From contig CAWJRG010000009.1 of NCBI GenBank assembly GCA_963845185.1, forward strand, positions 1 through 64,000: a DNA stretch of 64,000 bases. The letters are read 5' to 3'. Made by a program: the position numbers and the translations under genes. Below are positions 10,211 through 31,681 of this stretch, piece after piece. The notes below the pieces were generated by a model, which did not search any database, had not been told where the DNA came from, and was given only the letters and a program-made list of their open reading frames with translations. The stretch comes from an uncultured bacterium (GTDB lineage Bacteria; Oederibacteriota; PGYV01; CAWJRG01). How positions within the stretch are numbered: position 1 is the first letter of the stretch; every line of letters starts with the position of its first letter.

Positions 10211-10308
10211 ATACCGCTTGTCCTCAGCCTTGGGCTTCGGACTTGAGCGGGTACTAAGATATCGTAATGTTTTGCCTGTGCCTGTCGACGGCTTGGCAAA
10301 ACAAACGC
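10211..10308 (+). ncRNA. Two-hairpin leader element, copy 1 (minimal form)
   Basis: P1 ATACCGCTTGTCC..GGACTTGAGCGGGTAC plus P2 CGTAATGTTTTGCC..GCC-TGTCGAC-GGC..GGCAAAACAAACG. Homologous to 17947, 19061, 19231 and 31587. Confidence 0.7.
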
Positions 10309-10329
10309 TATCATAAGAGGGAAGCGGTT

Positions 10330-10899
10330 ATGAAAATACGGATATTCAGTTTTCTTGCCCTGTTTTTGGCACTATCATTTTCCTTGTCTGCCATGGATTT
10401 CAAGACAGTGGAAAAATATGTCAAAAAACAGGGGTTTAGCATTGTAGATAGCAAAAATCTCAGCAGGCATTGTTTTAATAAGGCAAAAGCCCTGGATACT
10501 GAATCGCCCATTGCGTTTGAAATAGATTACAATAATAACGGCAGGAATGAATGGGTCGTTTTCATGGAAAAAATTGTTGAAAGCAGGGATCCGCACGGAA
10601 AATCAAAATACACGGTGCACAGGAAAATCCTGATATTATTTGATGAGCCAAAAGGCATAAGGGAAGTCTGCCTGGAAAATTTTAATTATGTGCACCTGGG
10701 CAAAAATGAAATTTACCCGATAGATTTTGTTGTTGAAAAATACACGGAAAATACGATAAAAGACCATGAAAAAGGCAGGACTATTATAATCAAGCTTAAG
10801 AACCCGGTAATATACGCAGCGCAGTGCGAAGGCTCGTCGTATTATGTCCTGAATACCGGCGGGAAATACAGCTACAAAAAAATATGGGTTTCTGACTGA
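10330..10899 (+). CDS. Hypothetical secreted protein
   Basis: ATG 10330 after GAGGG. Signal peptide MKIRIFSFLALFLALSFSLSA and a DYNNNGRNE loop. Confidence 0.7.
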   Translation: MKIRIFSFLALFLALSFSLSAMDFKTVEKYVKKQGFSIVDSKNLSRHCFNKAKALDTESPIAFEIDYNNNGRNEWVVFMEKIVESRDPHGKSKYTVHRKILILFDEPKGIREVCLENFNYVHLGKNEIYPIDFVVEKYTENTIKDHEKGRTIIIKLKNPVIYAAQCEGSSYYVLNTGGKYSYKKIWVSD

Positions 10900-11211
10900 C
10901 AAGTGACAATCCCAAATTCCAACCATAAGCCATTCACTATTGTTAAGGCTTATGGCCCTGTGCCGGAATGTAATGACTGGTACAGGGATCCCAAATCCCA
11001 AACTTTCCCCCCGAAATATGGTATAATTTTTTAAACAGGGAGCGGTACCATATTCAGCAATATTCCCGCTGCGCGGGATTTTTAGGAGCAATTTTCGTGG
11101 GAAAAAGTACGGAAAGTTCAACGCCGAAAGTGAAAAAGAAATAAATTATCAATTGCCAATTTTAAATATATTATTAGCGGCAGTTAAATAAAAACAAAAG
11201 GCGAATGGAAA

Positions 11212-12387
11212 ATGAAAAAATCAATATTTTTTACGATTTTAGTATTATTGCTTATTTTTTCCGCGTGCTCAAAGAAGAAAAGCAGCCCTACCGGGCCCGG
11301 TGAGACAGACACGCCGGATATTGCCAATACGCAGACAGCCGTGGCTGGCAGCCTGACAAAAACAATTACTCCGACTTTGACGATAAGCGCCACGAATACA
11401 CAATCCGCAACAATAACACAGACATTCACAATAACGCAAACGTACACAATATCTGCAACATTTACAATATCGCCGACAATAACGCAAACAAGCATAATAC
11501 CGTGCAGCGCCTGGACGCAGGCAGCGCCTGCGGCGGCATTCTCGCCGGCACGGTATGGACATGCAAGCGTGGTGTTTAACAATTACATGTGGGTAATAGG
11601 GGGATTTGACGGCACGAATTACCTGAACGACGCATGGTATTCGGGCGACGGCTCGACATGGACACAAATGACACAATCAAACGCTTTCCTGCCTGCAAGG
11701 GATTTTTACGCAAGCATGGTATATAACAACCAGATATGGGTAATAGGAGGCAGGGGCAATTTTTATGACCTGCTTAACGACGTATGGTACTCAGGCGACG
11801 GCGCAAACTGGGCATGCGCGACCATAGCAGCTGCGTTTAACGGAAGGGACAGCCATACAGGCGTTGTTTATAATAACCTGATGTGGGTAATAGGAGGCAT
11901 TGATTGCAATTCCAGCAGGTATAACGACGTATGGTACTCGGGCGACGGTATAAACTGGGGATGCACCACAACTGCAGCCGCGTTTCCGGCAAGAGACGGG
12001 CATGCATGCGTGGTATTTAATAATAAAATATGGGTTATAGCCGGAAGCTCGGCCAGCGGCGCGCTGAGCGACGTATGGTATTCCAGCGACTGCAAAAACT
12101 GGGCACAGGCTGCAGCGTCGGCAGGATTCGGCGCCAGGTACTGGTTCGCGAGCGCGGTATATGACAATAAAATATGGGTGACAGGCGGAAACCCGAACGG
12201 GCAATATTATAACGACGTATGGTATTCAGGCGACGGAGCATCATGGGCCGAAGCGACAGTGTCGGCAGGTTTCAGCGCAAGGGAGGGGCACACAAGCCTG
12301 GCTTTTAACAATGAATTGTGGGTGACAGGCGGGCTTGAGTACAGCGGGACCATGCTGAACGATGCCTGGTATTCATCGGCGCAGTAG
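11212..12387 (+). CDS. Lipoprotein with Thr-rich linker and Kelch-like beta-propeller
   Basis: Lipobox FSAC, TxT-rich linker, and six repeats of R.GH...VFNN.MWVIGG...NDVWYS.DG..W. Confidence 0.85.
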   Translation: MKKSIFFTILVLLLIFSACSKKKSSPTGPGETDTPDIANTQTAVAGSLTKTITPTLTISATNTQSATITQTFTITQTYTISATFTISPTITQTSIIPCSAWTQAAPAAAFSPARYGHASVVFNNYMWVIGGFDGTNYLNDAWYSGDGSTWTQMTQSNAFLPARDFYASMVYNNQIWVIGGRGNFYDLLNDVWYSGDGANWACATIAAAFNGRDSHTGVVYNNLMWVIGGIDCNSSRYNDVWYSGDGINWGCTTTAAAFPARDGHACVVFNNKIWVIAGSSASGALSDVWYSSDCKNWAQAAASAGFGARYWFASAVYDNKIWVTGGNPNGQYYNDVWYSGDGASWAEATVSAGFSAREGHTSLAFNNELWVTGGLEYSGTMLNDAWYSSAQ

Positions 12388-12412
12388 GGCACAGGCAAAG
12401 GAGAAAACAAGG

Positions 12413-13999
12413 GTGAATGCAAAAAAGGTTTTATTATTATCTGCAGTGTTGTTCCTTATTTCCGGGAAAACAGCAGTTCCATATCCATGGAACGCCACAT
12501 ATCCATACGGCATGCAGGCAACCAACGCGAGCTCTAGCCAGGTGCAGGCCATATATGACGATTGGGCAAGCGAGTGCATAACTTCAAGCGGCGCAGGCGG
12601 ATACCGCAGGGTGCAAACCCCGGGAAATACCCCGCCTATTGACCCGCCTGCCACTGATTCAATATCAGAGGGAATAGGCTATGGAATGTTGTTTGCAGTG
12701 TATTTTTCAGACCAGCCTTTATTTAACGATTTGTGGAACTATGAGAAGCTCCACCTTGATTCAGACGGGCTCATGAACTGGGACATAACCGACACAGGCG
12801 CAGTACGCGGGTACAACTCTGCCACAGACGGCGACCAGGACATAGCTTTTAGCCTTGTCATGGCAGACAGGGAGTGGGGTTCAGGGACGTATTGCTATCT
12901 TACAAATGCAGCTGTTGAAATAACAAAATTAAAAACTTACGACTGCGATGCGTCGGACTATCATTTAAAACCCGATGACATGTGGGATGGCGTTGAATTT
13001 CCATGCTATTATATGCCTGCATGGTATACTGAGTTTGGGGTTGTAAACCCGTCTGAGGCGTCTTTCTGGGCAAACGTAGAAAACAAATGCAACTCAAACC
13101 TTGCAGCAGGCAGAAATCAAAACACAGGGCTCGTCGCGGAAAACCTGAACCATGACGGCACTGTGTATGGCGCCAATACATACTGGTATAATTCCTGCCG
13201 GGTGCCGTGGAGGTACGCCATAGACTATGCATGGAACGGCGACTCATTTAGCCAGACAGAAACAAACATGCTTGCCGTATTTTTCAACAACATAGGCCCG
13301 TCGAACATACTCGACGGCTATGACGTGGCGACAGGAGCGGCCACAGGCACGGATAATAATTCGGCTTTTGTAGGGCCGGCTGCATGCTCGCTGATGTCGC
13401 TGAGCCAGACTGCCTCAAACCAGAACAGTTTAAATGGTTTTTATACATGGTTGAATAATTACGGATATGACGGGTATTATTACGACGGCGCGCTCGCTAT
13501 AATGTCCATGCTTTTAATGTCCGGCAATTTCCCCAAATCTTTTTATACGCCGACAATCACGCCTGTTGTCTCACCTACGCCGACTTCGACAATTTCGCCC
13601 GTGCTTTCCCCGACGCCGACATACACCATAACGCCTGTTCCGCAGCCTACGCTGACGCCGGCGCCTTATTATCCGGCAAAAGGATTAATGATTTATCCGG
13701 ACCCGCTGAACAGGGTAAACGGCCTGCAGAACATGACGCTCAGGGTAAACCTGTCAAAACAGGAAACTTACGTGTGGATAAGGGTCTATACTTTCGCGAT
13801 GAGGAAGGTATTTGAAGGCTATGAAACAGTGCCAAACACAACAGCGGCAGGATGGCAGGACATACCGCTTGTAAACACAAGGAATTATCTTATCAGCACA
13901 GGCGCGGCAAACGGGCTGTATTATTATACTGTCTGCGATTTGCAAAACGGGAACCTGAACCGGATAAGCCAGGCAGAAACTTTTATAATATTGCGGTAA
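12413..13999 (+). CDS. Glycoside hydrolase family 8 with PT linker and C-terminal Ig-like/sorting domain (copy 1)
   Basis: SEGIGYGM, GLMNW, SATDGD and YNSCRVPWR motifs. GTG start after GGAG, chosen by analogy with copy 2. Confidence 0.9.
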   Translation: MNAKKVLLLSAVLFLISGKTAVPYPWNATYPYGMQATNASSSQVQAIYDDWASECITSSGAGGYRRVQTPGNTPPIDPPATDSISEGIGYGMLFAVYFSDQPLFNDLWNYEKLHLDSDGLMNWDITDTGAVRGYNSATDGDQDIAFSLVMADREWGSGTYCYLTNAAVEITKLKTYDCDASDYHLKPDDMWDGVEFPCYYMPAWYTEFGVVNPSEASFWANVENKCNSNLAAGRNQNTGLVAENLNHDGTVYGANTYWYNSCRVPWRYAIDYAWNGDSFSQTETNMLAVFFNNIGPSNILDGYDVATGAATGTDNNSAFVGPAACSLMSLSQTASNQNSLNGFYTWLNNYGYDGYYYDGALAIMSMLLMSGNFPKSFYTPTITPVVSPTPTSTISPVLSPTPTYTITPVPQPTLTPAPYYPAKGLMIYPDPLNRVNGLQNMTLRVNLSKQETYVWIRVYTFAMRKVFEGYETVPNTTAAGWQDIPLVNTRNYLISTGAANGLYYYTVCDLQNGNLNRISQAETFIILR

Positions 14000-14075
14000 G
14001 CCTTAGGCCTGTCTGAAAATAGACGGTGTCACCCCTTGCTTGTTGCTAATTTAAACCGGATTGAACGGAATGGCG

Positions 14076-14120
14076 GAGGGTGAAAGATGAAAACGCACGA
14101 AGCTGGGCCTGGCACCTTTC
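14076..14120 (+). repeat. ~45-bp direct repeat, copy A
   Basis: GAGGGTGAAAGATGAAAACGCACGAAGCTGGGCCTGGCACCTTTC, similar to 14748-14790. Confidence 0.65.
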
Positions 14121-14202
14121 TTGTTCCTTTAGCAATTGGTCTTGAAAAGATAAAAATTAACCTGTATTATTACCCAAATACACTGAATAAAGGAGGTAAA
14201 TT

Positions 14203-14724
14203 ATGAAATTCTTTAAAAATATCACATGGTCGTTTTTTATACTGGTAATTTTATGCGCGTTTCTGCCTTTTGCCAATGTATCGTGCTCGGGCAAGCAGGT
14301 CGCGACCATGACCGGCGCAAGCCTTTGCACAGGCACAAAAATAAGCTTTGCCGGGCATGAGCAGGATGTAAAACCTGAGCCCAGGGTGATTGCTGTGTAC
14401 GCGCTCTGCCTGATATCCGGGATTTTGCTTCTGCTGAAAAAGACCCGTAAAGCATTTGCTTTTGCGATGATATCAAGCCTTGCATGTTTTGGGCTCCTGT
14501 CGTGGTGTAAGCTTATAACGGACCAGATGGTAAAACAAAACCCCGGAAGCTGGTCGCTGTCCTATGATACAGGCTGTTATGCGACAATAATACTGCTCGC
14601 CTTATGCCTGATCTTCAGCGCCATTTTTGCATTCCGGCGCAGCGATGAAAAACCTGTTGAAACCGGCGTTCAAAATAATGGGGATAAGGAACCGGGAACA
14701 GGGAATGAAAGCAGCGGGATGTAA
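14203..14724 (+). CDS. Hypothetical membrane protein (about 4 TM)
   Basis: GGAGG RBS, hydrophobic segments, and an upstream TTGAAA-17-TATTAT promoter-like site. Confidence 0.75.
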   Translation: MKFFKNITWSFFILVILCAFLPFANVSCSGKQVATMTGASLCTGTKISFAGHEQDVKPEPRVIAVYALCLISGILLLLKKTRKAFAFAMISSLACFGLLSWCKLITDQMVKQNPGSWSLSYDTGCYATIILLALCLIFSAIFAFRRSDEKPVETGVQNNGDKEPGTGNESSGM

Positions 14725-14747
14725 GATTGTAAGGCTGGAGGATTGAA

Positions 14748-14790
14748 GAGGTGAAGGATGAAAACGCACGAAGCAAGGCCTGATACTTTC
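14748..14790 (+). repeat. ~45-bp direct repeat, copy B
   Basis: GAGGTGAAGGATGAAAACGCACGAAGCAAGGCCTGATACTTTC. Confidence 0.65.
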
Positions 14791-14838
14791 CTGACTTCTC
14801 TATATGTTTGAACAGGTGCCCTTCGGCAGGCATTAAAC

Positions 14839-14866
14839 GTTGGGACGTTTTGCAAAACGTCTCTAC
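14839..14866. repeat. REP-like palindrome (GTAG/CTAC type)
   Basis: GTTGGGACGTTTTGCAAAACGTCTCTAC. Confidence 0.7.
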
Positions 14867-14918
14867 GTAAAAACAAACGAAAGAACAAAGGCAGGCACGG
14901 GCAAAGGAGAAAACAAGG

Positions 14919-16448
14919 TTGAATTTAAAAAAGGTTTTGTTATTATCTGCAGCTTTGTTCCTTATTTCCGGGAAAACAGCAGTTCCATATCCATGGAACG
15001 TGACATATCCGTACGGCATGCAGGCAACCAACGCGAGCTCTGCGCAGGTGCAGGCCATATATAACGCATGGGCAAGCGCCTGCATAACCTCAAGCGGCGC
15101 AGGCGGATACCGCAGGGTGCAAAACCCGGGAAATACCCCGCCTACAGACCCGCCTGCCACCGACTCTGTGTCGGAAGGCATAGGCTACGGCATGATAATG
15201 GCCGTGTATTTTTCGGACCAGTCCCTGCTGAATGATTTATGGAATTATGAGAAAATTTATATTGATTCAGACGGGCTCATGAACTGGGATATAGCCGACA
15301 CAGGCACAGTAAGCGGGTACGGCTCGGCTACGGACGGTGATGAAGACATAGCTTTTAGCCTTGTCATGGCTGGCAGGGAATGGGGCTCGTCAGGCACGTA
15401 TAATTACATATCGCTTGCCGCAGCTGAAATAACAAAACTAAAAAATTACGACTGCAGCGCGTCGGACTATCATTTAAAACCCGGGGACGGGTGGGATGAT
15501 TGTGAATTTCCTTCGTATTACATGCCTGCCTGGTACACTGAGTTTGGGGTCGTAAACCCGGGTGAGGCGTCTTTCTGGGCAAACGTAGAAAACAAATGCA
15601 ACTCAAACCTTGCAACAGGCATAAATCCAGGCACGGGGCTCGTCGCGGAAACCCTGAATCATAACGGCACTGTATACGGTACAAACACATACGGCTATAA
15701 TTCCTGCAGGGTGCCGTGGAGATACGCCATTGATTACGTGTGGAACGGCGATCCGGCGGCCCAGACAGAAACAGGCCTGCTGGCGGCATTTTTTAACAAC
15801 ATAGGGCCGGCAAACATACTTGACGGTTATGATGTGGCGACAGGCGCGGCTAACGGCTTATATAATGATTCGGCTTTTGTCGGGCCCGCAGGATGCTCGC
15901 TGATGTCGCTGAGCCAGACTGCCTCAAACCAGAACAGTTTAAATGGTTTTTATACCTGGCTGAATAATTACGGATATGACGGTTATTATTATGATGGAGC
16001 GCTCGCGGTAATGTCCATGCTTTTAATGTCCGGCAATTTCCCCAAATATTTTTATACGCCGACAATCACGCCTGTTGTCTCACCGACACCGCAGCCTGCG
16101 CTGACGCCGGCGCCTTATTATCCGGCAAAAGGATTAATGATTTATCCCAACCCGCTGAACAGGGCAAACGGCCTGCAGAACATGACGCTCAGGATAAACC
16201 TGTCAAAACAGGAAACTTATGTGTGGATAAGGGTCTATACTTTCGCGATGAGGAAGGTATTTGAAGGCTATGAAACAGTGCCAAACGCAACAGCGGCGGG
16301 ATGGCAGGATATACCGCTTGTAAACACAAGGAATTATCTTATCAGCACAGGCGCGGCAAACGGGCTGTATTATTATACTGTCTGTGATTTGCAAAACGGG
16401 AACCTGAACCGGATAAGCCAGGCAGAAACTTTTATAATATTGCGGTAA
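14919..16448 (+). CDS. Glycoside hydrolase family 8 with PT linker and C-terminal Ig-like/sorting domain (copy 2)
   Basis: Close paralog of 12413-13999. TTG start after GGAG. Confidence 0.9.
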   Translation: MNLKKVLLLSAALFLISGKTAVPYPWNVTYPYGMQATNASSAQVQAIYNAWASACITSSGAGGYRRVQNPGNTPPTDPPATDSVSEGIGYGMIMAVYFSDQSLLNDLWNYEKIYIDSDGLMNWDIADTGTVSGYGSATDGDEDIAFSLVMAGREWGSSGTYNYISLAAAEITKLKNYDCSASDYHLKPGDGWDDCEFPSYYMPAWYTEFGVVNPGEASFWANVENKCNSNLATGINPGTGLVAETLNHNGTVYGTNTYGYNSCRVPWRYAIDYVWNGDPAAQTETGLLAAFFNNIGPANILDGYDVATGAANGLYNDSAFVGPAGCSLMSLSQTASNQNSLNGFYTWLNNYGYDGYYYDGALAVMSMLLMSGNFPKYFYTPTITPVVSPTPQPALTPAPYYPAKGLMIYPNPLNRANGLQNMTLRINLSKQETYVWIRVYTFAMRKVFEGYETVPNATAAGWQDIPLVNTRNYLISTGAANGLYYYTVCDLQNGNLNRISQAETFIILR

Positions 16449-16526
16449 GCCTAAGGGCTGTCTCTACCAAAACAAACATAAACCATTTGCTTGTGCCTGA
16501 AAATTGGGCGAAAAGGAAAAGCATAT

Positions 16527-17420
16527 ATGAAAAAAATTCCGGTTGCTTTATTTATTATAATTGCGATTTTAATGATGTGCGGATTTAAAAAATATTCATC
16601 TTCATGGGGAACTTTGGGAAGCGGCAACGGGCAGTTTAATTATCTTGGCGGGATAGCGCTGGACAGCAGCGGCAACGTGTATGTTTCGGACTATATGAAT
16701 TACAGGGTGCAGAAATTCAGCGCTGCGGGCGCGTATATGACACAATGGGGCGGCGGAGGGAACGGCAACGGGAAGTTTGATTTGCCCACGGGAATAGCGG
16801 TGGACAGCAGCGGTAATGTGTATGTTGTGGACGGCAATAACAGGCTCCAAAAATTCAGCAGGACCGGGAAATTTTTGACACAATGGGGCAGTTACGGGAA
16901 AGACCCCGGGCAGTTTTTTAATCCCCTGGGAGTGGCGGTGGACAGCAGCGGAGACGTATATGTTACAAACGCCGATAACAGGATACAGAAATTCAGCAAG
17001 ACCGGGAAATATATTATGCAATGGGGCAGTTATGGAGTATTCTGCGGGAAGGTTGACAAGCCTGTCGGCATAGCAATAGGCAGCAACGGGAACGTGTATA
17101 TTGCCGATTCGGGCAATGACAGGATAGAAATATTCAGCAACAAGGGCGCGTATTTAAGGGAATTGGGCGAAAATGGGACAGGCGAAGGCCAGCTTAACAA
17201 GCCTTACGGGGTGGCTTTGGACAGCAGCGGCAACGTATATGTCGCGGACACGTATAATAACAGGATACAGGAATTCAGCAATGAAGGGGCATATGTGGCG
17301 CAATGGGGCAGTTTTGAAAGCTGGCAATTTAACAAGCCCATCGGGGTGGCAGTGGACAGCAGCGGCAGTGTGTATGTCGCGGACTCGGGGAACAACAGGA
17401 TACATGTATTCCACCCGTAG
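16527..17420 (+). CDS. Secreted NHL-repeat six-bladed beta-propeller
   Basis: Signal peptide followed by repeats of F..P.GIAVDSSGNVYV.D..NNRIQKF. Confidence 0.9.
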   Translation: MKKIPVALFIIIAILMMCGFKKYSSSWGTLGSGNGQFNYLGGIALDSSGNVYVSDYMNYRVQKFSAAGAYMTQWGGGGNGNGKFDLPTGIAVDSSGNVYVVDGNNRLQKFSRTGKFLTQWGSYGKDPGQFFNPLGVAVDSSGDVYVTNADNRIQKFSKTGKYIMQWGSYGVFCGKVDKPVGIAIGSNGNVYIADSGNDRIEIFSNKGAYLRELGENGTGEGQLNKPYGVALDSSGNVYVADTYNNRIQEFSNEGAYVAQWGSFESWQFNKPIGVAVDSSGSVYVADSGNNRIHVFHP

Positions 17421-17547
17421 GGATGAAGCGATTTGGGATTTGGAATTTGGTATGGATTCAAAATTTTAACGGTAAAGAAAAGAAGTGAACTTTGAAGAGA
17501 ATTTATCCGTCTAATTTTAAGAGGTTTAAGTGGAAACAAGGTGGAAA

Positions 17548-17805
17548 ATGGATGATAATTACCTGAAAATCATAAAACAACTTGGGGTTGTGTATAAGGA
17601 TCGTTTAATTGACCATATTGAATACAGGAGGCTTGTAAGAAAAATAGACGCCCAAAGCAATGATTTAAAAAACTCGAAAAAATTAAGCAGCAGCCTGGAT
17701 ACAATAATTAATTTAAAGGAAGACTTAAAACAGGGCAAAATAACGGAAAAATTTTTCATTTGCGAAAAGGACAGGCTACTGAATGAAATAAATGATTATA
17801 TTTAA
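17548..17805 (+). CDS. Small hypothetical protein
   Basis: ATG after AAGGTGG. 85-aa helical-looking ORF. Confidence 0.45.
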   Translation: MDDNYLKIIKQLGVVYKDRLIDHIEYRRLVRKIDAQSNDLKNSKKLSSSLDTIINLKEDLKQGKITEKFFICEKDRLLNEINDYI

Positions 17806-17905
17806 AAAATGGCGCTGCATGTTTTAAATCAGATGTGTAAAGCGGATTTACTTGTTTTATACGCCTTTTTGGAGCATACTCAATATATGATAGTTTATGA
17901 GAACG

Positions 17906-17936
17906 GCCATGATGACGGCTTGACAGAATAAACGCT
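17906..17936 (+). ncRNA. Truncated leader element (3' half of P2 only)
   Basis: GCC-ATGATGAC-GGCTTGACAGAATAAACGC followed by the same ATGATATCAAGCA spacer seen at 19220. Confidence 0.55.
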
Positions 17937-17946
17937 ATGATATCAA

Positions 17947-18175
17947 GCATTGCTTGTCCTTGGCCTGCCGGCCTCGGACTTGAGCGGCTTGACAGAGTTT
18001 GATTTTGAAAGCGTCAACAGAGAAGCAAAATCATTACTCTGACAAGTCCATGCAACGCATGGAGTGCGTAATATTTTGTCAGGGTAGCTTTTATAATGAT
18101 GATTAATGGAAACTACCCGTCAAATAGTCCACAGGACTATTTGACCCTGTTTGAGGGCTTGACAAAATAAACGCT
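17947..18175 (+). ncRNA. Two-hairpin leader element, copy 2 (carries inserts X and Y)
   Basis: P1 core GCTTGTCC..GGACTTGAGCGG, insert X at 17988-18063, and P2 GCGTAATATTTTGTCA..TGACAAAATAAACGC with insert Y at 18082-18145. Ends just before AAGGAG. Confidence 0.7.
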
Positions 18176-18190
18176 ATCAAGGAGATAAAC

Positions 18191-18889
18191 ATGAAAACAC
18201 AATTCACAAAGAACAGGTTCAGGCCAATGCTGGCAGGACTGCTTTGCCCACTGTTTTTAATAATTATTTTCAGCCTTTTGGCCGCGAGGGATGTGCGCAA
18301 TGAAGGCACCCAAAGCAACAGCGTGCACAGCAGCAGTACGCACAGCAGTAGCGTGCACAGCGGCAATGTGCGCAGTGGAGGAGTAAGCAGCGCGAACTGG
18401 CACAACGGTGGCGTAAGCAGCGCGAACTGGCATAACGGTGGCGTAAGCAATGCTAACTGGCATAATGGAGGCGTTCACAGCGGATACTGGCACAATGGAG
18501 GCACGCACGGCGGGTACTGGCACAATGGAAGCTGGTACAGGTGGCACGGAACGTACTGGATAGGAGGCATTCCTTATTACTATTACTATAACCCTTACTA
18601 CTCTGACGAGTACTGCGAAGTAGTACCGGATGGATATATTGTTGTGCCGGCACCGGTTGTAAGTTCGGACCAGCAGGAAGCAGAGCCCGATGCTTCCAAC
18701 CCGGCCCAGGAACCTCCGCAAACACAGGAAAAATCACCAAACAAAATTATAATAAACATACCAAATTCACACGGCGGTTTTACGCCCGTAACCCTTAAAA
18801 AATACAAAAAGGGGTATATAGGCCCGCAGGGTGAATTTTACGATGGCAAGCCGACCGTTAAACAGTTACAAGTATTGTACGGGGATTAA
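18191..18889 (+). CDS. Hypothetical exported low-complexity repeat protein
   Basis: AAGGAG RBS, N-terminal hydrophobic helix, 5/10-residue WHNGG repeats, a Tyr-rich stretch and a small C-terminal domain. Confidence 0.75.
   Translation: MKTQFTKNRFRPMLAGLLCPLFLIIIFSLLAARDVRNEGTQSNSVHSSSTHSSSVHSGNVRSGGVSSANWHNGGVSSANWHNGGVSNANWHNGGVHSGYWHNGGTHGGYWHNGSWYRWHGTYWIGGIPYYYYYNPYYSDEYCEVVPDGYIVVPAPVVSSDQQEAEPDASNPAQEPPQTQEKSPNKIIINIPNSHGGFTPVTLKKYKKGYIGPQGEFYDGKPTVKQLQVLYGD
18317..18547 (+). repeat. Coding tandem repeats (15/30-bp period)
   Basis: AGCAGCGCGAACTGGCA(C/T)AACGGTGGCGTA units encoding SSANWHNGGV, preceded by 15-bp S.VHS units. Confidence 0.8.
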
Positions 18890-19060
18890 CAGGTATATAA
18901 GGAACCCGTATAAAAAAGTCATATAATTTATATTACTGAAGTCAGTCTCAGATCATTCCTTTTTGTGTGGTAACTGCTAATAAATATTGCAATATGGGGG
19001 ATTTCACAATATAATCAATAAGGCTGCAGATTTTGCCGGCCACTGTTAATTTATCAATCA

Positions 19061-19220
19061 ATACCGCTTGTCCCTCACAAGTTCGGGACTGGAGCGGCTT
19101 GACAGAGTTTGATTTTGCAAGCGTCAACAGAGAAGCATAATCATTACTCTGACAAGTCCATGCAACGCATGGAGTGCGTAATACTTTGCCAGCACCTTTG
19201 GCTTGACAAAATAAACGAAA
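19061..19220 (+). ncRNA. Two-hairpin leader element, copy 3a (insert X)
   Basis: ATACCGCTTGTCC..GGACTGGAGCGG, insert X at 19098-19173, and a short P2. Confidence 0.7.
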
Positions 19221-19230
19221 TGATATCAAG

Positions 19231-19390
19231 CACCCCTTGTCCTCGGCCTTGGGGCTTCGGACTTGAGCGGGTACATGATTTCGTAATACTTTGCTGGGTA
19301 GCTTTTACATGATGACTTATGGTAACTACCAGTCAAATAGTCCGCAGGACTATTTGACTGCCTTCGACGGCTTGGCAAAATAAACGAAAT
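19231..19390 (+). ncRNA. Two-hairpin leader element, copy 3b (insert Y)
   Basis: CTTGTCC..GGACTTGAGCGGGTAC, then ATTTCGTAATACTTTGC..GGCAAAATAAACGAAAT with insert Y at 19296-19358. Ends just before GGGAGG. Confidence 0.7.
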
Positions 19391-19403
19391 TAAGGGAGGT
19401 TTT

Positions 19404-20387
19404 ATGAAAGCGATTGTATACACAAAATACGGACCGCCGGATGTCCTTGAGTTCAGGGAAGTGAAAAAACCTGAGCCCTGGAATAATGAAGTGCTTGTAA
19501 GAATTCAGGCGGCATCATTAAACGCGGCTGACTGGCATCTTTTGAGGGCTGACCCGTTCATAACCCGCCTGTTTTCAGGGCTTTTGTGGCCGAAATACAC
19601 TATACTCGGAGCTGACATAGCAGGGCGGGTCGAAGCTGTCGGCAAAGACGTAAAGCAGTTTAAGCCGGACGAGGATGTATTCGGGGATTTATTCAGGAGC
19701 GGCTTTGGCGGTTTCGCGGAATATGCAATCGCCAGGGAAGAGGCATTAGCGCCGAAACCTGTCGGCTTGACATTTGAGGAAGCAGCGGCAGTGCCTGTGG
19801 CTGCAGTCACTGCTTTGCAGGGCCTCCGCGACAAAGGGCATATCAAGCCGGGACAAAAGGTCCTGATTAACGGCGCGTCGGGCGGTGTCGGCACATTCGC
19901 GGTGCAGATTGCCAAATCATTCGGCGCAGAAGTTACAGCCGTGTGCAGCACTGGGAACATGGACCTGGCGCGGTCACTCGGCGCGGACCATGTCATTGAT
20001 TACAACAGGGAAGATTTCACCAAAAACGGGCAGCAATATGATTTGATTCTTGCCGCCAACGGATATCATCCGATTTCAGACTACAAGCGCGCGTTAAGCG
20101 CCAAAGGCACTTATGTCATGAGCGGAGGTTCGGGCGCCCAGATGTTCCAGGCCATGCTCATGGGGCCGTGGATTTCAATGACCGGGGAAAAGAAAATGAT
20201 CGGCCTGTCAGCGGCATCAAACCAAAAAGATTTGCTTTTTATAAAAGGGCTTATTGAAGCTGGTAAAGTAAAACCAGTCATAGACAGGCGTTACCCTTTA
20301 AGCAAGGTCGCCGAAGCTTTCCAGTACCTTGAACAAGGTCACGCGCGGGGGAAAGTGGTAATAGATATTGAAAATTATAAGCCATAA
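19404..20387 (+). CDS. NAD(P)-dependent MDR-family oxidoreductase (Zn-independent, quinone reductase-like)
   Basis: MKAIVYTKYGPPDVL, VLINGASGGVGTFAVQIAK and GHARGKVVI motifs. Confidence 0.92.
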   Translation: MKAIVYTKYGPPDVLEFREVKKPEPWNNEVLVRIQAASLNAADWHLLRADPFITRLFSGLLWPKYTILGADIAGRVEAVGKDVKQFKPDEDVFGDLFRSGFGGFAEYAIAREEALAPKPVGLTFEEAAAVPVAAVTALQGLRDKGHIKPGQKVLINGASGGVGTFAVQIAKSFGAEVTAVCSTGNMDLARSLGADHVIDYNREDFTKNGQQYDLILAANGYHPISDYKRALSAKGTYVMSGGSGAQMFQAMLMGPWISMTGEKKMIGLSAASNQKDLLFIKGLIEAGKVKPVIDRRYPLSKVAEAFQYLEQGHARGKVVIDIENYKP

Positions 20388-23527: not shown

Positions 23528-23550
23528 ACAGCAAAGCTGAATTAACCTGT

Positions 23551-23578
23551 TGCAATATTGGATATAAGCAATATAATA
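23551..23578 (+). promoter_or_regulatory. sigma70 promoter (divergent)
   Basis: TTGCAA followed about 17 nt later by TATAAT, upstream of 23647. Confidence 0.55.
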
Positions 23579-23646
23579 GTAAAAATAAAGCGGCAAGTTT
23601 AATAAAACTAATCACAAACAATAAATTCAACACAAGGAGGATTTTT

Positions 23647-24825: not shown

Positions 24826-24899
24826 TTTGCAGCCGGACTGTGTGGAACGTGCGGCGTTAACCCTTCGAGCATGAAGGTGAACTGCAAAAAGAGGAAAAA

Positions 24900-26231: not shown

Positions 26232-26864
26232 ATGCATTTAATTACAGGATTGATATTAACGATAGTGGTTTCCTATGTTGCCGGCTCGATACCGACCGGA
26301 TATATTATCGCGAAGAAATTAAAGGGCATTGACATAAGGAAGGAAGGCAGCGGCAATATAGGCGCGACGAACGTAAGAAGGATAATGGGCATGAAATGGT
26401 TTTTTATAGTGCTCGCGCTCGACGCTTTTAAGGGGTTTTTGCCGGTCTTTGTTTTTTCGCTCATTTACAAGGGTACCTATCCGTTCCTGCCTGTAATTGC
26501 AGGCGTGTGCGCCATGCTGGGGCACACTTTCACGATATTTCTGAATTTCAAGGGCGGAAAGGGAGTGGCAACAGGGCTGGGCGTATTCCTGGCGCTTGCG
26601 CCGTTCAGCATCCTCACGGCCTTATTGGCTTTTGTAATCGTGTTGTTCGCGTTCGGATACATATCAGTAGGCTCAATGACTGCGGCGGTATTGCTGCCGT
26701 TCCTTGTTTACATATACGGCGAGACAGGATATCTTTACCTGGTATTCTTTTTTTCCTTATTAGCCGCAATATTTGTTGTTTACAAGCACAAGGATAATAT
26801 CAAAAGGCTTATTGACGGCACTGAAAGCAAGTTTGAGTATAAAAAGGAGCAAAGCGCCAAATGA
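26232..26864 (+). CDS. plsY: Glycerol-3-phosphate acyltransferase PlsY
   Basis: GSIPTG, GSGNIGATNV, FKGGKGVAT and HKDNIKRL motifs. Confidence 0.96.
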   Translation: MHLITGLILTIVVSYVAGSIPTGYIIAKKLKGIDIRKEGSGNIGATNVRRIMGMKWFFIVLALDAFKGFLPVFVFSLIYKGTYPFLPVIAGVCAMLGHTFTIFLNFKGGKGVATGLGVFLALAPFSILTALLAFVIVLFAFGYISVGSMTAAVLLPFLVYIYGETGYLYLVFFFSLLAAIFVVYKHKDNIKRLIDGTESKFEYKKEQSAK

Positions 26865-27868
26865 AGGTTTCGGTCATAGGCGCCGGCGGTTGGGGCACGA
26901 CTTTAGCCGTGCTTTTATACGAAAAAGGCAATGAAGTCATGCTATGGGAGTATTTCCCGGATTATGCAAGGGTACTTACGGAGACGCGCGAAAATATCAA
27001 GTTTTTAAAAGGCATAAAGATTCCCGAAAAGATTGATATCACGATTGACCTGCAACGCTGCGTGGAGCAGGCCGAAACAGTGGTAATGGCAGTGCCGTCG
27101 CACGCTTTAAGGCAGACGCTGGAAAAAATACAAGGATTTGATTATAAAAAAAAGTTCTTTATAAGCTGCATTAAAGGCATCGAGCAGAAATCGCTTATGA
27201 GGATGTCGCAGGTCATGAAGGATGTCCTTGGCAAGGTGAAGTTCGCCGTCATATCAGGGCCGTCGCACGCGGAAGAAGTTTCAAGAAAAATCCCGACTGC
27301 AGTGGTTGCGGCTTCGGAAAAATTGTCCATGGCAGCCCGGGCGCAGGAGTTGTTTTATACTGATGATTTGCGGGTTTATACAAACAGGGATGTGGCAGGC
27401 GTTGAGCTGGGCGGCAGCGTGAAAAATGTCATTGCCATAGCCGCAGGAATACTTGACGGGCTTGGCGCGGGCGCGAACACAAAAGCAGCGCTTATCACGA
27501 GGGGCCTTGCAGAAATGAAAAGGCTTGGCAAAGCGCTTGGCGCAAAGGAAACGACTTTTTTCGGCCTGTCGGGGCTGGGAGACCTGGTGGTTACTTGCGA
27601 AAGCAGGTTCTCAAGGAACAGGGCAGTGGGAGAGCAGCTCGGCAAAGGCAAAAAATTAAAGGAAATACTCGCAGGCATGGACATGGTGGCAGAAGGAGTC
27701 AAGACAACCGAGTCGGTTTACATGATGGCAGAAAAGCACAAAGTCGAGATGCCGATAACAAGGGAAACATACGAGGTATTATATAAAGACAAACCGGCAA
27801 AGCAGTCCATCAGGGATCTAATGACAAGGAAACTTAAGTCAGAGGAAGAATTTCTTAATGAAAAATAG
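26861..27868 (+). CDS. gpsA: NAD(P)H-dependent glycerol-3-phosphate dehydrogenase
   Basis: GAGGWGT, SGPSHA, KNVIAIAAG and GLGDLVVTC.SRFSRN motifs. Confidence 0.97.
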   Translation: MKVSVIGAGGWGTTLAVLLYEKGNEVMLWEYFPDYARVLTETRENIKFLKGIKIPEKIDITIDLQRCVEQAETVVMAVPSHALRQTLEKIQGFDYKKKFFISCIKGIEQKSLMRMSQVMKDVLGKVKFAVISGPSHAEEVSRKIPTAVVAASEKLSMAARAQELFYTDDLRVYTNRDVAGVELGGSVKNVIAIAAGILDGLGAGANTKAALITRGLAEMKRLGKALGAKETTFFGLSGLGDLVVTCESRFSRNRAVGEQLGKGKKLKEILAGMDMVAEGVKTTESVYMMAEKHKVEMPITRETYEVLYKDKPAKQSIRDLMTRKLKSEEEFLNEK

Positions 27869-27884
27869 AACAGTTTAATGTTTA

Positions 27885-27916
27885 AAGTTAAAAGTTGAAC
27901 GTTGAACGTTGAACGT
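27885..27916. repeat. Heptamer tandem repeat (GTTGAAC-like)
   Basis: AAAGTTAAAAGTTGAACGTTGAACGTTGAACG. Confidence 0.6.
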
Positions 27917-27953
27917 AAATATTAAGCATGAAACATTAAACAAGGAGGAAACG

Positions 27954-28307
27954 ATGGAGATTAGAGAGAAAAAGTTTTACCCGATAAGGGAAGTGGCTCA
28001 AATCACAGAGGTGGCGGAATCGGTCATAAGGTTCTGGGAGCAGAATTTTGAGGAATTAAACCCGCTGAAAAACAGGGTCGGCCAGAGGAAATACACAAAA
28101 AAAGATATAGATGTAATTTTGCTTATTAAAAAGCTCCTTTACGAGGATGAGTATAAGATAGCCGGGGCACAGAGGAAACTGAAGGAGCTTATAAGCGCGG
28201 CAGACGGGGAGCAGATGGAGCTTTTTCCTTTCCAGGAAAAACTGAAAGACGAGAAATTAAAGGAAATAAGGAAAGAACTGACTGAAGTGCTGACAATACT
28301 GCAATAA
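27954..28307 (+). CDS. MerR-family transcriptional regulator (type found next to tRNA-Pro)
   Basis: FYPIREVA..VIRFWE..F..LNP.KNR.GQRKY..LLY...YKIAGA pattern. GGAGG RBS. Confidence 0.9.
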   Translation: MEIREKKFYPIREVAQITEVAESVIRFWEQNFEELNPLKNRVGQRKYTKKDIDVILLIKKLLYEDEYKIAGAQRKLKELISAADGEQMELFPFQEKLKDEKLKEIRKELTEVLTILQ

Positions 28308-28481
28308 ATTTACAATTCGGGATGAAACATGCTTACAGGCATAATAGACGAGATGAAAAAACTCAAACCTTTTTAAACTCTGAACTTTAAACCGAAAATT
28401 TTAATCTAATCAGGCAAATGTGCTTAATTTCGTGTTGAAGTATAATATAAATAATGTTAAAATGCCTTCGCTGAATTTTTT

Positions 28482-28545
28482 AATCCCGCTCCGCGAAAAT
28501 CCCCGCCGGTAGAGGCGGGGATTGATAGCGCTTCGGGGAGGGAGC
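28482..28545. repeat. Orphan GC-rich hairpin resembling an IS200/IS605-type end
   Basis: CGCGAAAATCCCCGCC-GGTAGA-GGCGGGGATTGATAGCG, with no transposase nearby. Confidence 0.4.
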
Positions 28546-28586
28546 ATATTAGAGAATTTTTTAAAGTTGCTCCACTTTAACGGTAT

Positions 28587-28663
28587 CGGGGCGTAGCGCA
28601 GGTGGCTAGCGCACTCGCTTGGGGTGCGAGAGGTCGCCCGTTCAAATCGGGTCGCCCCGACCA
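28587..28663 (+). tRNA. tRNA-Pro(GGG)
   Basis: CGGGGCG acceptor, anticodon arm CTCGC-TTGGGGT-GCGAG, TTCAAAT T-loop and encoded CCA. Confidence 0.97.
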
Positions 28664-28705
28664 TTTTAAATATTCGAAATATATTTGCAGACGGGCTGAA
28701 AAGTC

Positions 28706-29347
28706 ATGGACTATGCTTTTTTGAAAGAAAAAATGATAAAGCAGCAGATCGAAGCGCGCGGAATAAACGATAAAAAAGTTATCGCTGCAATCCGTGCAGT
28801 GCCCAGGCATGAATTTGTGCCTGAACAGGACATGGATTACGCTTATGACGACGCGCCGCTGCCGGTGGGCTGCGGGCAGACAATATCACAGCCGTATATA
28901 GTAGCTCTTATGACAGAAATGCTCGAAATAAAACCGGACAGCAGGGTGCTGGAGATAGGCACCGGTTCAGGATACCAGACAGCAGTGCTTTCCAAAATGG
29001 CAAAGGAAGTCTTTACCATCGAACTTGTGGAAATTCTTTCATCCCGAGCAAAAGATACGATAGAAAACCTGAAAATCAGCAATGTCCATTTTAGAGCAGG
29101 AGACGGCTCGCCGGGATGGCCTGAATCCGCGCCATATAACAGAATAATAGTAACTGCTGCCGCGCCTGATGTACCGGCAGCGCTTGAGAATCAGCTTGAT
29201 AAGAACGACGGGATTTTAATCGCGCCTGTGGGCAACATGCTTATCCAGAAACTCGTTAAAATAAAATATGTTAAATTGAAAAAAGAAGAAACAGAAGGAA
29301 TAAACGTTGTTTTTGTCCCGTTGCACGGGCAATACGGATTCAAATGA
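28706..29347 (+). CDS. pcm: Protein-L-isoaspartate O-methyltransferase
   Basis: VPRHEFV, GQTISQPYIVA, VLEIGTGSGYQTA and IIVTAAA motifs. Confidence 0.96.
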   Translation: MDYAFLKEKMIKQQIEARGINDKKVIAAIRAVPRHEFVPEQDMDYAYDDAPLPVGCGQTISQPYIVALMTEMLEIKPDSRVLEIGTGSGYQTAVLSKMAKEVFTIELVEILSSRAKDTIENLKISNVHFRAGDGSPGWPESAPYNRIIVTAAAPDVPAALENQLDKNDGILIAPVGNMLIQKLVKIKYVKLKKEETEGINVVFVPLHGQYGFK

Positions 29348-29353
29348 AACGGT

Positions 29354-29430
29354 CGGGGCGTAGCGCAGGTGGCTAGCGCGCCTGCTTCGGGAGCAGGAGG
29401 TCGCTGGTTCAAATCCAGTCGCCCCGACCA
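29354..29430 (+). tRNA. tRNA-Pro(CGG)
   Basis: Anticodon arm CCTGC-TTCGGGA-GCAGG, GGTTCAAATCC T-arm and encoded CCA. Confidence 0.97.
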
Positions 29431-29488
29431 GATTTAAGCGGTTTAAACTGGTTCGGGACATTTAACATTTATAATCCTGGGAGCACAA

Positions 29489-30175
29489 ATGAAAAAAGCA
29501 GTTTTGATTTTCATCGTCATAATACTCGCATTTAACTTTATAAAAGCAGACAGTGTGGATGTAAATCATTTCCTTATTGGGCCTTCGGTAAACGGGGAGA
29601 GCGGGTTTATTTATAACCCTTCAAGCTATGTCCTCGGCAACAACATGCTCTCGCTCGGCATACATTCATATTTTTTTAAGGCCAATTACGGCCTGTTCAA
29701 TTTTCTTGAAGCGGGCTTGAAATTCAACATCGGAACTTCCTCTGAAATCCTGGACATACTTAAAACAAGCAGCGTAAATCTAAAGGTAAAATTCCTTGAG
29801 GAAGAAAAATATTTTGTGAGCATCGCCGGCGGAGTGGAGGAAATACCGATAGCATTTTATAATCTTTTTACCGATAATCCGTTCAGGCCTTATGTAGCAG
29901 TGTCAAAGAAGATTTACGACATGAATTTTACGGCGGGATATATGGCCAAAAGGGGAAAGGGCATATTCGCGGACGCAAGCAAGGTGATAGACGATACGGT
30001 ATTAGCAATAGCAGAATACGACGGCGAGCACTACAATGCAGGGGTCAAGATAAGCCTAAATTATAATTTTAATATTGAAGTTTTCGTCAGGGAAATAGAC
30101 CGGATGAATACGATAAAAGAACTTGGCCAGTTTTTAAGGGATTATTTTATTTTCGGGATTACTTACATACAATAA
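29489..30175 (+). CDS. Hypothetical exported protein, probable outer-membrane beta-barrel (YjbH-like)
   Basis: Signal peptide, alternating beta-strand pattern, AEYDG..YNAG and a C-terminal FGITY. Confidence 0.6.
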   Translation: MKKAVLIFIVIILAFNFIKADSVDVNHFLIGPSVNGESGFIYNPSSYVLGNNMLSLGIHSYFFKANYGLFNFLEAGLKFNIGTSSEILDILKTSSVNLKVKFLEEEKYFVSIAGGVEEIPIAFYNLFTDNPFRPYVAVSKKIYDMNFTAGYMAKRGKGIFADASKVIDDTVLAIAEYDGEHYNAGVKISLNYNFNIEVFVREIDRMNTIKELGQFLRDYFIFGITYIQ

Positions 30176-30188
30176 AAAGGGAAATATA

Positions 30189-30480
30189 ATGGCGGGAAGA
30201 GAAGGGTTTTCATATAACGGTAACAGGACGCGTGCAGGGAGTCGGTTACAGGTATTATTGCAGGAATGCGGCCGGAGGCATGGGCCTTAAGGGATATGTA
30301 ATGAATATGCCGGATGGAAACGTGGAAATACAGGTTTTTGGCAACAAGGAAAAAGTTGAGGATTTTATTTCGGAAATTACAAGCAGGGGCAGAGGATTTA
30401 TAATAGAAGGGATACAGACAGAAGAAATACCTGTTGACACAAACTACAGGGATTTCGGAATAAAATTTCACCCGTACTGA
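30189..30480 (+). CDS. acyP: Acylphosphatase (start codon is 1 nt out of frame)
   Basis: VTGRVQGVGYR and GYVMNMPDGNVE motifs. The only nearby ATG (30189) is offset by one extra base at GCGGGAA. Confidence 0.85.
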
Positions 30481-30572
30481 CCAATACAGAACAGAGGGAT
30501 CCATGAAGAAGAAAAAAGGCAAAAAGAAAAGGGCTGCAGAGCAAAGAAGTAAAGAATGTTTTAAAGGGCAAA

Positions 30573-31559
30573 ATGACGGGTAAAGAAACCATGGCGGAAA
30601 TTGAAAAAGACGAACCGAAAATACCTGAAATCCTGCAAAACGAGCAAATATTGCCTGAAGAAACAGCGGGTTCGGAAAACGCAGAGGAAAGCGGCGGGTC
30701 AGAAGAAACCGAAACAGGGGACAGAAGCAGCGCGGACGGCAGGGATTCCCTTTATATTTATTTTGACGATATAAGAAAAGAAAAAATACTGACTGAAAAA
30801 GAAGAAAAAGAAGTCATAAGAAAAGCTCAAAAAGGCGATAAAAAGGCAAGGGAGAGGCTCATAAAAGCGAATCTGCGGCTTGTCGTCAAAATGGCAAAAA
30901 GATACGAGTATTTCAGGATATCCCTTGTGGACATTATCGAAGAAGGAAATATCGGGCTTGTAAAGGCAATAGAAAAATTCATACCCTCGAAAGGGTTCAG
31001 GTTTTCCACATATGCCACATGGTGGATTAAGCAGGCAATAAACAGGGCAATATCAAACCAGAGAAATACGATAAGGATACCGGTACACATCATAGATATT
31101 TATTACAAGTATTTAAAATTCATGAGCAAGGGGATGAAAAATACAGGTACTGCGCCTTCGAAAGAAGCGGCTGCCAAAAAATTAAAAATATCGCCTGTAA
31201 GGTTAAATGAAATACTAAACGTAATGAAATCACCCAAGTCACTCGAGCATGAATATGAAAAAGAAGACAGCGAGTCCACAAGGACATTAAAAGATACGAT
31301 AGAAGACACAAGCGTGGTAAAGCCCGACGATGACTTTTTTGAAAAGGACAAAAAAGAAAGCCTGTTAAAAGTAATTTTCGGCTTAAGGCCAAAAGAACAG
31401 CAGGTTTTGATATACAGGTACGGCCTTAACAACGGGGAAGCCATGACGCTCGAGCAAATCGGGAAAAAGATGCGGCTAACAAGGGAAAGAATAAGGCAGA
31501 TAGAAATGACGGCGCTGAGAAAAATGAGGTTCCTGCTTAAAAGGCGGGACGTAGTATAA
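30573..31559 (+). CDS. sigma70-family group 1/2 (RpoS-like) sigma factor
   Basis: ANLRLVV, EEGNIGLVKAIEKF, GFRFSTYATWWIKQAI, TIRIPVH and LTRERIRQIE motifs. Lacks region 1.1. Start uncertain. Confidence 0.9.
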   Translation: MTGKETMAEIEKDEPKIPEILQNEQILPEETAGSENAEESGGSEETETGDRSSADGRDSLYIYFDDIRKEKILTEKEEKEVIRKAQKGDKKARERLIKANLRLVVKMAKRYEYFRISLVDIIEEGNIGLVKAIEKFIPSKGFRFSTYATWWIKQAINRAISNQRNTIRIPVHIIDIYYKYLKFMSKGMKNTGTAPSKEAAAKKLKISPVRLNEILNVMKSPKSLEHEYEKEDSESTRTLKDTIEDTSVVKPDDDFFEKDKKESLLKVIFGLRPKEQQVLIYRYGLNNGEAMTLEQIGKKMRLTRERIRQIEMTALRKMRFLLKRRDVV

Positions 31560-31586
31560 TGCAATAAACCTTTAATTTAAAATAGA

Positions 31587-31681
31587 ATACCGCTCGTTCA
31601 AGGCAGTAGCCTTGAACTGGACCGGGTATAAGACTCCGAAAGATTTTGCCTTAGCTGTTGACGCTCGGCGAAATCAACGGA
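31587..31681 (+). ncRNA. Two-hairpin leader element, copy 4 (diverged, apt leader)
   Basis: ATACCGCTCGTTC-AAGGC..GCCTT-GAACTGGACCGGGTAT plus TCCGAAAGATTTTGCC..GC-TGTTGAC-GC..GGCGAAATCAACGGA, then AAGGAG. Confidence 0.65.

Follow-up and report, generated by a model that had tools for sequence, protein, structure and literature searches.

A structured, high-copy two-hairpin repeat directly before ribosome-binding sites in a bacterium of candidate phylum FCPU426/Goldbacteria

Why should one and the same pair of hairpins stand directly before the ribosome-binding sites of unrelated genes? The question is raised by the first 64 kb of contig CAWJRG010000009.1 (C9) of an uncultured bacterium (assembly GCA_963845185.1), a stretch of 64,000 nucleotides (nt) that is referred to here as the window. 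In a preliminary description of this DNA, a two-hairpin element had been read either as a novel family of cis-regulatory RNA or as a mobile hairpin element that was domesticated. It has been followed through its source genome (G000; 3.5 Mb, 11 contigs, 99.4% complete) and through related genomes. With a probability of roughly 60%, it represents a non-autonomous, modular, structured repeat that has spread by insertion adjacent to Shine–Dalgarno (SD) sequences and forms an SD-sparing leader module.

A simple copy of the element is built from two hairpins, P1 followed by P2, and spans about 100 bases. P1 has the layout (A/G)(T/C)ACCGCTTGTCC-[tip]-GGACTTGAGCGGGTA. P2 takes the form CG-TAA-[9-bp stem]-[small tip]-[stem']-AA-CG and is closed by a further base helix of 5–7 bp. 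The five copies and the fragment that had been reported are indeed present in the sequence, and a covariance model derived from 42 simple copies (R1), which was run over the whole window with its filters off, matches at these sites and nowhere else. The two simple copies are recognized in full (Table 1). The three long copies are composites that hold two additional hairpin modules, C and D, and yield weaker, split matches at 17946–18178, 19060–19221, and 19229–19320. Module C is located after the 3' strand of P1, and module D lies within the loop of P2. P1 had been described by a single consensus, from which the 17947 copy departs by its degenerate 5' strand. As had been noted, the arrays lie in sense orientation and end close to an SD: the purine-rich motif follows after 0–6 nt, and the start codon is found 12–18 nt past the base of P2. 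In copy 1 only, the spacer between SD and start (10317–10327, GAGGGAAGCGG) is complementary to the 5' strand of P1 (10211–10223) and pairs with it in the minimum-energy fold; the apt copy, folded likewise, shows no such pairing. The proposal that the element belongs to no known RNA family is borne out by Rfam, which returns a single tRNA for the whole window at gathering score and no match to the element between 10000 and 32000 at E ≤ 10. The intron models of Rfam leave the window copies unmatched at both thresholds, and for 20 loci from relatives all matches fall far under the gathering score.

Table 1. Element copies and associated features (positions in the window unless a contig is named).
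Feature	Position	Strand	Remarks
Simple copy 1	10211–10312	+	P1 10211–10254, P2 10258–10312; R1 match 10210–10316, 94.5 bits
Downstream of copy 1	SD ~10317–10322, ATG 10330	+	Purine-rich SD; 189-aa protein without Pfam family
Fragment	17912–17947	+	3' half of P2 and tail ...ATGATATCAAG that joins tandem units; repeat family D16
Composite copy	17947–18178	+	P1 5' strand degenerate; module C (17986–18067); P2 with module D in its loop (18082–18147); z = −7.2
SD and start	18179–18193	+	AAGGAG SD 18179–18184, ATG 18191; 232-aa protein without Pfam family
Promoter-like site	18987–19015	+	TTGCAA-17-TATAAT, 10/12; 45 nt upstream of the 19061 copy, not fused
Composite copy	19061–19229	+	P1, module C (19096–19177), P2, joining tail ATGATATCAA
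Composite copy	19230–19391	+	In tandem with the 19061 copy; P1, P2 enclosing module D (19296–19358); 42.4 bits
SD and start	19392–19406	+	AAGGGAGG SD 19392–19399, ATG 19404; zinc-type alcohol dehydrogenase family protein; P2 ends ~19391
Simple copy before apt	31587–31684	+	P1 31587–31629, P2 31631–31684; R1 match 31586–31688, 93.5 bits
SD and start of apt	31686–31699	+	AAGGAG SD 31686–31691, ATG 31697; resembles element-free apt leaders of relatives; read as the host's own
Group II intron reverse transcriptase domains	C9:700695, C9:811636(−), C9:845477(−), C10:383780(−), C10:832145, C11:62007(−)		

The count of five copies was too low by far, as the family extends over the entire genome. A regular expression for the 5' strand of P1 finds 64 sites in G000, and an nhmmer profile of 27 simple copies gives 191 matches at E < 0.01, of which 165 distinct ones are retained at E < 1e-5. 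With R1, at least 144 matches are obtained at E ≤ 1e-3. Module C is present in 11 copies and module D in 41, and the family shows subfamilies, tandem arrays, and nested modules. So many copies before the ribosome-binding sites of unrelated genes mark it as a structured element that spreads, as opposed to a switch that senses a metabolite.

Several repeats accompany the family. A tandem array at C9:916521–917175 (minus strand) is composed of six full, nearly identical 100-nt units and a partial seventh, and it is situated about 190 nt upstream of a gene for a 1099-aa protein. A second repeated block (CTAT[A/G]AGTT...TTTTCAAT...) replaces the expected SD after six element copies, its sites including C5:35403, C9:671563, C9:676671, C1:208381, C5:32921, and C9:656523; a similar TTTTCAATGAAA stretch precedes the SD of an element-free paralogue at C9:920138. 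A further hairpin block (..CCCGC..GAAAA(T/C)CC(C)GCC..GGCGGG(G)AT..GATAGCGCT..) lies directly 5' of several element copies, for example at C6:76320–76379, C9:907472–907531, C10:198949–199008, and C9:532443–532502.

The position of the element relative to genes is nearly fixed. An SD, a start codon, and an open reading frame of at least 60 aa follow 89 of the 139 nhmmer matches with a complete 3' end, and in 84 of these 89 the start lies 14–23 nt after the AACG of P2, with a mode of 19. The 165 distinct matches can be divided into 84 before an SD and start codon, 11 before another copy, 27 without a simple 3' end, which are mostly copies bearing inserted modules, and 43 others. Several of the last class are nevertheless followed by an SD whose reading frame is short or unusual, such as C11:57317, where a 25-codon frame lies ahead of a gene for a 575-aa protein. 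Orientation by itself says little, since about 85% of the genes in G000 are encoded on the leading strand, which is a bias of unusual strength. (The sign of both GC skew and gene strand switches at about 700–750 kb on C9 and about 750–800 kb on C10.) The leading-strand orientation is found in 149 of the 165 copies; 9 of the 16 lagging copies nevertheless belong to the class with SD and start codon. Copy orientation tracks the gene and not replication.

On its 5' side the element has a sharp boundary, namely the initial base of NNACC. Beyond it, the flank is merely A-rich (A at −1 in 79 of 119 copies), otherwise heterogeneous, and carries no fixed promoter. A promoter fused to the element was considered as well and is ruled out by these heterogeneous flanks, by the 45-nt gap before the 19061 copy, and by the apt copy, upstream of which the plus strand has no promoter-like site. 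The sigma70 promoter that had been placed just before copy 1 could not be upheld, as it reaches only 9/12 of the consensus and the three sites of the region do not exceed the level of shuffled sequence (mean 1.9, s.d. 1.3). Random orientation and placement or a lack of covariation, which had been named as signs of a neutral repeat, are not what is found: copies are random in neither respect and covary strongly, so that a structured, co-transcribed RNA module is still likely.

Both hairpins are under selection, and each contains a small conserved asymmetric internal loop. In the alignment of 42 copies, 92.1% of the cells in paired columns can pair, a value reached by 0 of 500 shuffles, which give 82.5%; when the partners are slid by 1–3 columns, pairing drops to 30–42%. 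Changes on both sides are seen at 22 of 36 pairs, in line with the reported survival of pairing through sequence change. Within P1, G8:C42 and C9:G41 are less well preserved and form Watson–Crick pairs in only 57 and 72 of 107 copies genome-wide. The alignment of relatives comprises 64 matches (48 distinct rows) that were fitted to the model. It is 91.9% paired against 66.6% when shuffled (0/500), with double changes at 34 of 36 pairs and up to five pair types at one position in the base of P2. The G000 copies have a mean z of −4.9 relative to shuffles. The asymmetric WAA/AA loop had been called invariant, which holds for its A residues: the two A of the 5' WAA and the 3' AA (listed with the following C) are constant in 42 of 42 copies. 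Both conserved loops (5'-UAA/AA-3' in P2, U/UUG in P1) are retained from family to family within the order.

Covariation is seen most convincingly at an orthologous intergenic locus between a TPR gene and a RadC-family gene, where the element lies antisense to both genes in three genomes of one genus (G014, G020, and G023) and in one genome of another (G019). At the remaining 15 loci that were retrieved with the same protein, it is missing. In the four genomes the base of P2 reads GTGCGAG, GTGTGAG, GTTAGAG, and GTGCCAG, each with a matching 3' strand.

How the copies came to lie next to the SD can be judged from homologous loci of apt, metK, argG, ilvD, and murC, which were taken from 23 other genomes of the order. 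Among the 119 loci, R1 matches only the five of G000 and none of the 114 from relatives. Judged from this comparison of sequences, the insertions are lineage-specific at all five genes tested. Synteny is preserved: in G000, the apt copy is flanked upstream by a sigma-70-family gene (30573–31559), and by eye most relatives show what looks like the 3' end of a similar gene at this place. At metK, a conserved native promoter and a 42-nt leader remain upstream of the element. The region from SD to ATG resembles that of element-free homologs: for argG it is AAGGAGAACAAA in G000 and G014 alike, for ilvD it is AGGAGGcTTATTATG in G000 versus AGGAGGaTTATTATG in G004 and G018, and for apt it is AAGGAGCAAAC versus AAGGAGGCAAAA in G012. 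The SD is hence that of the host gene, and the element has been inserted just 5' of it. A pair of G000 paralogues, with and without the element, is alignable from exactly AAGGGAGTA onward. That the element itself brings the SD, an idea suggested by subfamilies that share TAAGGAG or AAGGGAGG, is ruled out by these orthologue and paralogue comparisons.

The murC locus illustrates what such an insertion can cost. In relatives the SD of murC is located inside the 3' end of murG, whereas in G000 the murG frame enters the element and stops after 13 codons. Altogether, 10 of 145 copies either cut short or directly adjoin an upstream frame that is 100 codons or longer. That the element lands 5' of the SD even where a gene loses its last codons suggests a targeting mechanism more than tolerance alone. 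The ends of the element bear no terminal inverted repeats, as the 5' end agrees with the reverse-complemented 3' end at no more than 9 of 25 positions, whatever the shift. Target-site duplications are likewise absent: in the best of 70 offset pairs, identical 4-mers are found in 7 of 98 copies (control 1), and identical 6-mers in 3 of 98. A metagenome scan with the dehydrogenase starting at 19404 gave 80 loci of 61–75% identity, none of which has the element; these are distant homologs, so that the scan is uninformative on close relatives.

The genes that follow the element are of many kinds. A scan of 64 downstream proteins revealed unrelated functions, with 12 of the 64 lacking a family. Among the genes are argG, an aspartate/ornithine carbamoyltransferase-family gene, metK, ilvD, pfk, rplC, atpB, nuoB, nuoL, secG, gatC, murC, and one for a cellulase of glycoside hydrolase family 5 (GH5). 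Their roles cover amino-acid and nucleotide synthesis, glycolysis, respiration, cell wall, ribosome, and secretion and extend to glycoside hydrolases and repeat proteins, a heterogeneity that excludes a ligand-specific switch. In predicted ensembles of 72 leaders, the SD core has an unpaired probability of 0.55, compared to 0.31 when the element is shuffled (native higher in 62 of 72, p = 2e-10) and 0.45 in 150 genes without the element (p = 0.014). The simplest reading of these predictions is that a self-folding block keeps the ribosome-binding site accessible and may protect the mRNA.

Beyond G000, R1 matches 10 of 40 other genomes, all of which belong to the same order; the genomes searched lie outside the family and genus of G000 itself, and the order-wide protein searches likewise yielded no member of either. 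The matches are distributed over families f2, f4, and f9 (1/1 each) and f10 (7/8), and none of 17 genomes from other orders of the phylum is matched. In public genomes, a pattern scan retrieves nothing but 'candidate division FCPU426' and metagenome-assembled genomes without a name. As far as these searches reach, the element is confined to one order of candidate phylum FCPU426/Goldbacteria. In G001 (family f2) it precedes GGAGG and ATG, same as in G000, and G003 and G021 contain tandem units of P2 alone. In f10 the module takes a different setting: it is directly preceded by a −10-like TATTATA box, and on its 3' side come an A-run, a GC hairpin, and a T-run. This unit of −10-like box, module, and intrinsic terminator looks like the layout of a small-RNA gene.

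According to the preferred reading, the repeat would have been inserted, always in sense, into the few bases directly 5' of pre-existing SDs. Transcription would therefore be expected to include it as the final ~100 nt of a 5' leader or intercistronic spacer, in which P1 and P2 each fold back and the SD stays single-stranded. Acting as a leader module that is complete in itself and spares the SD, it may be neutral or mildly helpful, for instance as an insulator or a decay barrier, and the stand-alone form of f10 may be its ancestral or master form. Several observations weigh against this reading. Mismatches in G000 are mostly A·C (169) rather than G·U (55) and are concentrated in the outer pairs of P1, and antisense folding is on average better by 2.2 kcal/mol, the antisense strand being the more stable one in 76 of 107 copies; a purely sense-RNA constraint would predict neither. 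In copies from relatives the ratio is reversed (23 G·U, 10 A·C). The covariation counts overstate the number of independent events, because copies within subfamilies share descent. SDs are short and alike everywhere, so that the argument for a host-derived SD has to be carried by five gene families and a single paralogue pair. Nor did any enzyme or mechanism of spread come to light, and the strong conservation of the loops suggests a specific binding partner, which would be superfluous for a plain insulator.

This last point leads to a possible, though on balance unlikely, alternative in which the element defines a post-transcriptional regulon. The conserved loops would dock one RNA-binding protein or the ribosome, about 100 mRNAs would be placed under one translational control, mobility would merely recruit genes, and stand-alone terminator copies would act as decoys, as CsrB and RsmZ do for CsrA. 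The invariant loop residues and their retention across families would fit such a regulon, as would the fixed distance of the module from the SD, the small-RNA-like units of f10, the one locus conserved across two genera, and the excess of G·U over A·C in relatives, which agrees with selection on the sense RNA. Yet no candidate protein was found, the target genes share no theme, and the SD is predicted to be open rather than occluded. In addition, the same genes lack the element at 114 of 114 loci in relatives, which leaves no room for a conserved regulon. A sensor that opens or closes the adjoining SD, be it a riboswitch, a thermometer, or another device, could likewise be imagined for a structured, strongly covarying element directly beside an SD, and the pairing of the copy 1 spacer would speak for it. 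This pairing is not general, though, and at least 144 Rfam-unmatched copies before unrelated genes, their absence from orthologues, and an SD more open than in controls leave a sensor near refuted already. We do not think that the element senses a ligand. Of the two readings offered in the preliminary description, the domesticated mobile hairpin element agrees with what is found, namely the high copy number, the 0 of 114 loci in relatives, the subfamilies, arrays, and nested modules. A cis-regulator that senses a ligand or is specific to one gene does not, as the downstream genes are unrelated, orthologues lack the element, and the SD is predicted open.

If the element is mobile, its hairpins could also serve at the DNA level, as ends for single-stranded DNA transposition of the REP/RAYT or IS200/IS605-PATE type (PATE, palindrome-associated transposable element), with selection acting on the bottom strand and presence in mRNA being incidental. 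Such a transposon would account for the A·C excess, which corresponds to G·T on the bottom strand, for the more stable antisense fold, and for the 149 of 165 copies in leading-strand orientation. Unpaired bases conserved inside hairpins are typical of hairpin-transposon ends and are also present in the element. It is nonetheless judged improbable. P1 and P2 are dissimilar, 9 of the 16 lagging copies follow their gene, and G·U exceeds A·C in relatives. Furthermore, neither a Y1 transposase (Y1_Tnp, PF01797) nor a TnpB domain (PF07282) is encoded in G000. Of 24 genomes of the order, 15 possess Y1, which does not track the element (6 of 11 element-positive versus 9 of 13 element-negative genomes).

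Which activity could then have spread the SD-sparing repeat? Transposase candidates near repeated flanks at C9:528–533 kb and 916–920 kb were rejected, since the genes there proved to be ordinary ones and the region a segmental duplication. A number of copies begin only at model positions 13–21 and had seemed 5'-truncated, a sign of reverse transcription; many of them are preceded by module D, and they represent a different architecture and not truncations. Separate from the element, G000 harbors six near-identical group II introns (Table 1), all of which are inserted after GGAGG-N5-6-ATGA. Their sites lie after the first base of codon 2 in genes whose sequence runs on as AAAAA.... Within its final ~50 nt, the intron provides AAGGAGG-N8-ATG in frame with the interrupted gene, so that the host protein might be made without splicing. 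One intron copy lies at a gene start that is in turn preceded by a two-hairpin element.

A rather remote scenario can be built on these introns, in which the element is an SD-homing mobile RNA. Master units that run from promoter to terminator would produce transcripts that are copied back into DNA 5' of an SD, which would make the element a 'portable leader' resembling a short interspersed nuclear element (SINE). A candidate for the mobiliser would be the reverse transcriptase that belongs to the co-resident group II intron. The genome with six introns is also the one with the burst of element copies, and at E ≤ 1e-10 the RVT_1 domain is detected in only one further genome of the order, G013. 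This coincidence is only a lead, and a weakened one, as multicopy introns often fail assembly in drafts and the intron site differs from that of the element. It is also opposed by G001, which has SD-adjacent copies without a detected reverse transcriptase. Template switching at SD microhomology might achieve the same without any transposase.

If the reading as an inserted leader module is correct, about 3% of the organism's genes have gained the same folded 100-nt block right before their ribosome-binding site, among them the core genes metK, argG, ilvD, murC, rplC, atpB, and secG. The precision of the site is unusual for a repeat without inverted ends, target duplication, or a matching transposase. 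It raises the questions of how DNA is placed beside an SD and what a self-contained structure upstream of it does to translation and to the life of the mRNA. As the module is small and portable, an effect as leader insulator can be tested in any laboratory host. The stand-alone form of the relatives is a candidate for a new small-RNA family in a phylum without described non-coding RNAs in the literature searched.

The window contains further repeated sequences. Two tRNA genes 770 nt apart (28587–28660 and 29354–29427) have nearly identical acceptor, D, and T arms. Adjoining GH8 glycoside-hydrolase paralogues (12362–13999 and 14919–16448) share 300-nt blocks of 83–97% identity, a recent tandem duplication, and adjacent serpin genes (7129–8430 and 8458–9747) share blocks of 76–87% identity. 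Kelch-repeat and NHL-repeat beta-propeller proteins are encoded at 11212–12387 and 16491–17420 with an internal period of about 140–147 nt, and most direct-repeat families of the window result from this periodicity of the beta-propeller genes.

Searches of the literature on Goldbacteria/FCPU426 and on intergenic repeats located beside SDs gave no description of the element, and the Goldbacteria genome paper, when searched by term, neither describes it nor mentions RNAs of this kind. Comparable traits are spread over several known systems. BOX of Streptococcus pneumoniae and ERIC/IRU of enterobacteria are modular hairpin repeats in transcribed intergenic DNA that carry blocks at fixed internal sites; they are found in both orientations and are not known to keep a fixed distance from an SD. 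The element has a similar modular build but is sense-oriented, with its 3' end 0–6 nt from the SD. Miniature inverted-repeat transposable elements such as Correia/NEMIS are likewise short, non-autonomous, high-copy, and co-transcribed with their neighbors, as the element probably is, but they possess the terminal inverted repeats and target-site duplications that it lacks. REP/RAYT and the IS200/IS605-derived PATEs share the hairpins, the lack of an own gene, and the orientation bias and differ in their Y1 transposase, which is missing from G000 and unlinked to the element across the order.

The TAACTGA direct repeats of marine Beggiatoaceae, which are called intergenic in the title of their description (PMC4679880), are short heptamers as opposed to a folded 100-nt module. 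By analogy, the nearest described kind seems to be represented by Neisseria REP2 and the IR-A/IR-B repeats of Borrelia plasmids, which are likened here by their description and not by their sequence. In a review (Delihas 2011, PMC3184786), these repeats are given as ~100–150 nt long, without terminal inverted repeats, and with two stem-loops, and they form the 5' untranslated region of reading frames; REP2 carries promoter, ribosome-binding site, and ATG, exists in 23–26 copies, and is linked to co-regulated contact-induced genes. As far as these accounts go, the element resembles them in its place directly upstream of reading frames, its two internal stem-loops, and its plain ends. It differs from REP2 in that it has no built-in promoter, uses the SD and ATG of the host, reaches at least 144 copies, contains nested modules, and also exists in a terminator-linked stand-alone form. 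It is thus a real, strongly structured, high-copy member of the rare kind of repeat that forms a leader next to the ribosome-binding site, and it is distinguished by SD-adjacent insertion without recognizable transposon features and by a small-RNA-like form in its relatives.

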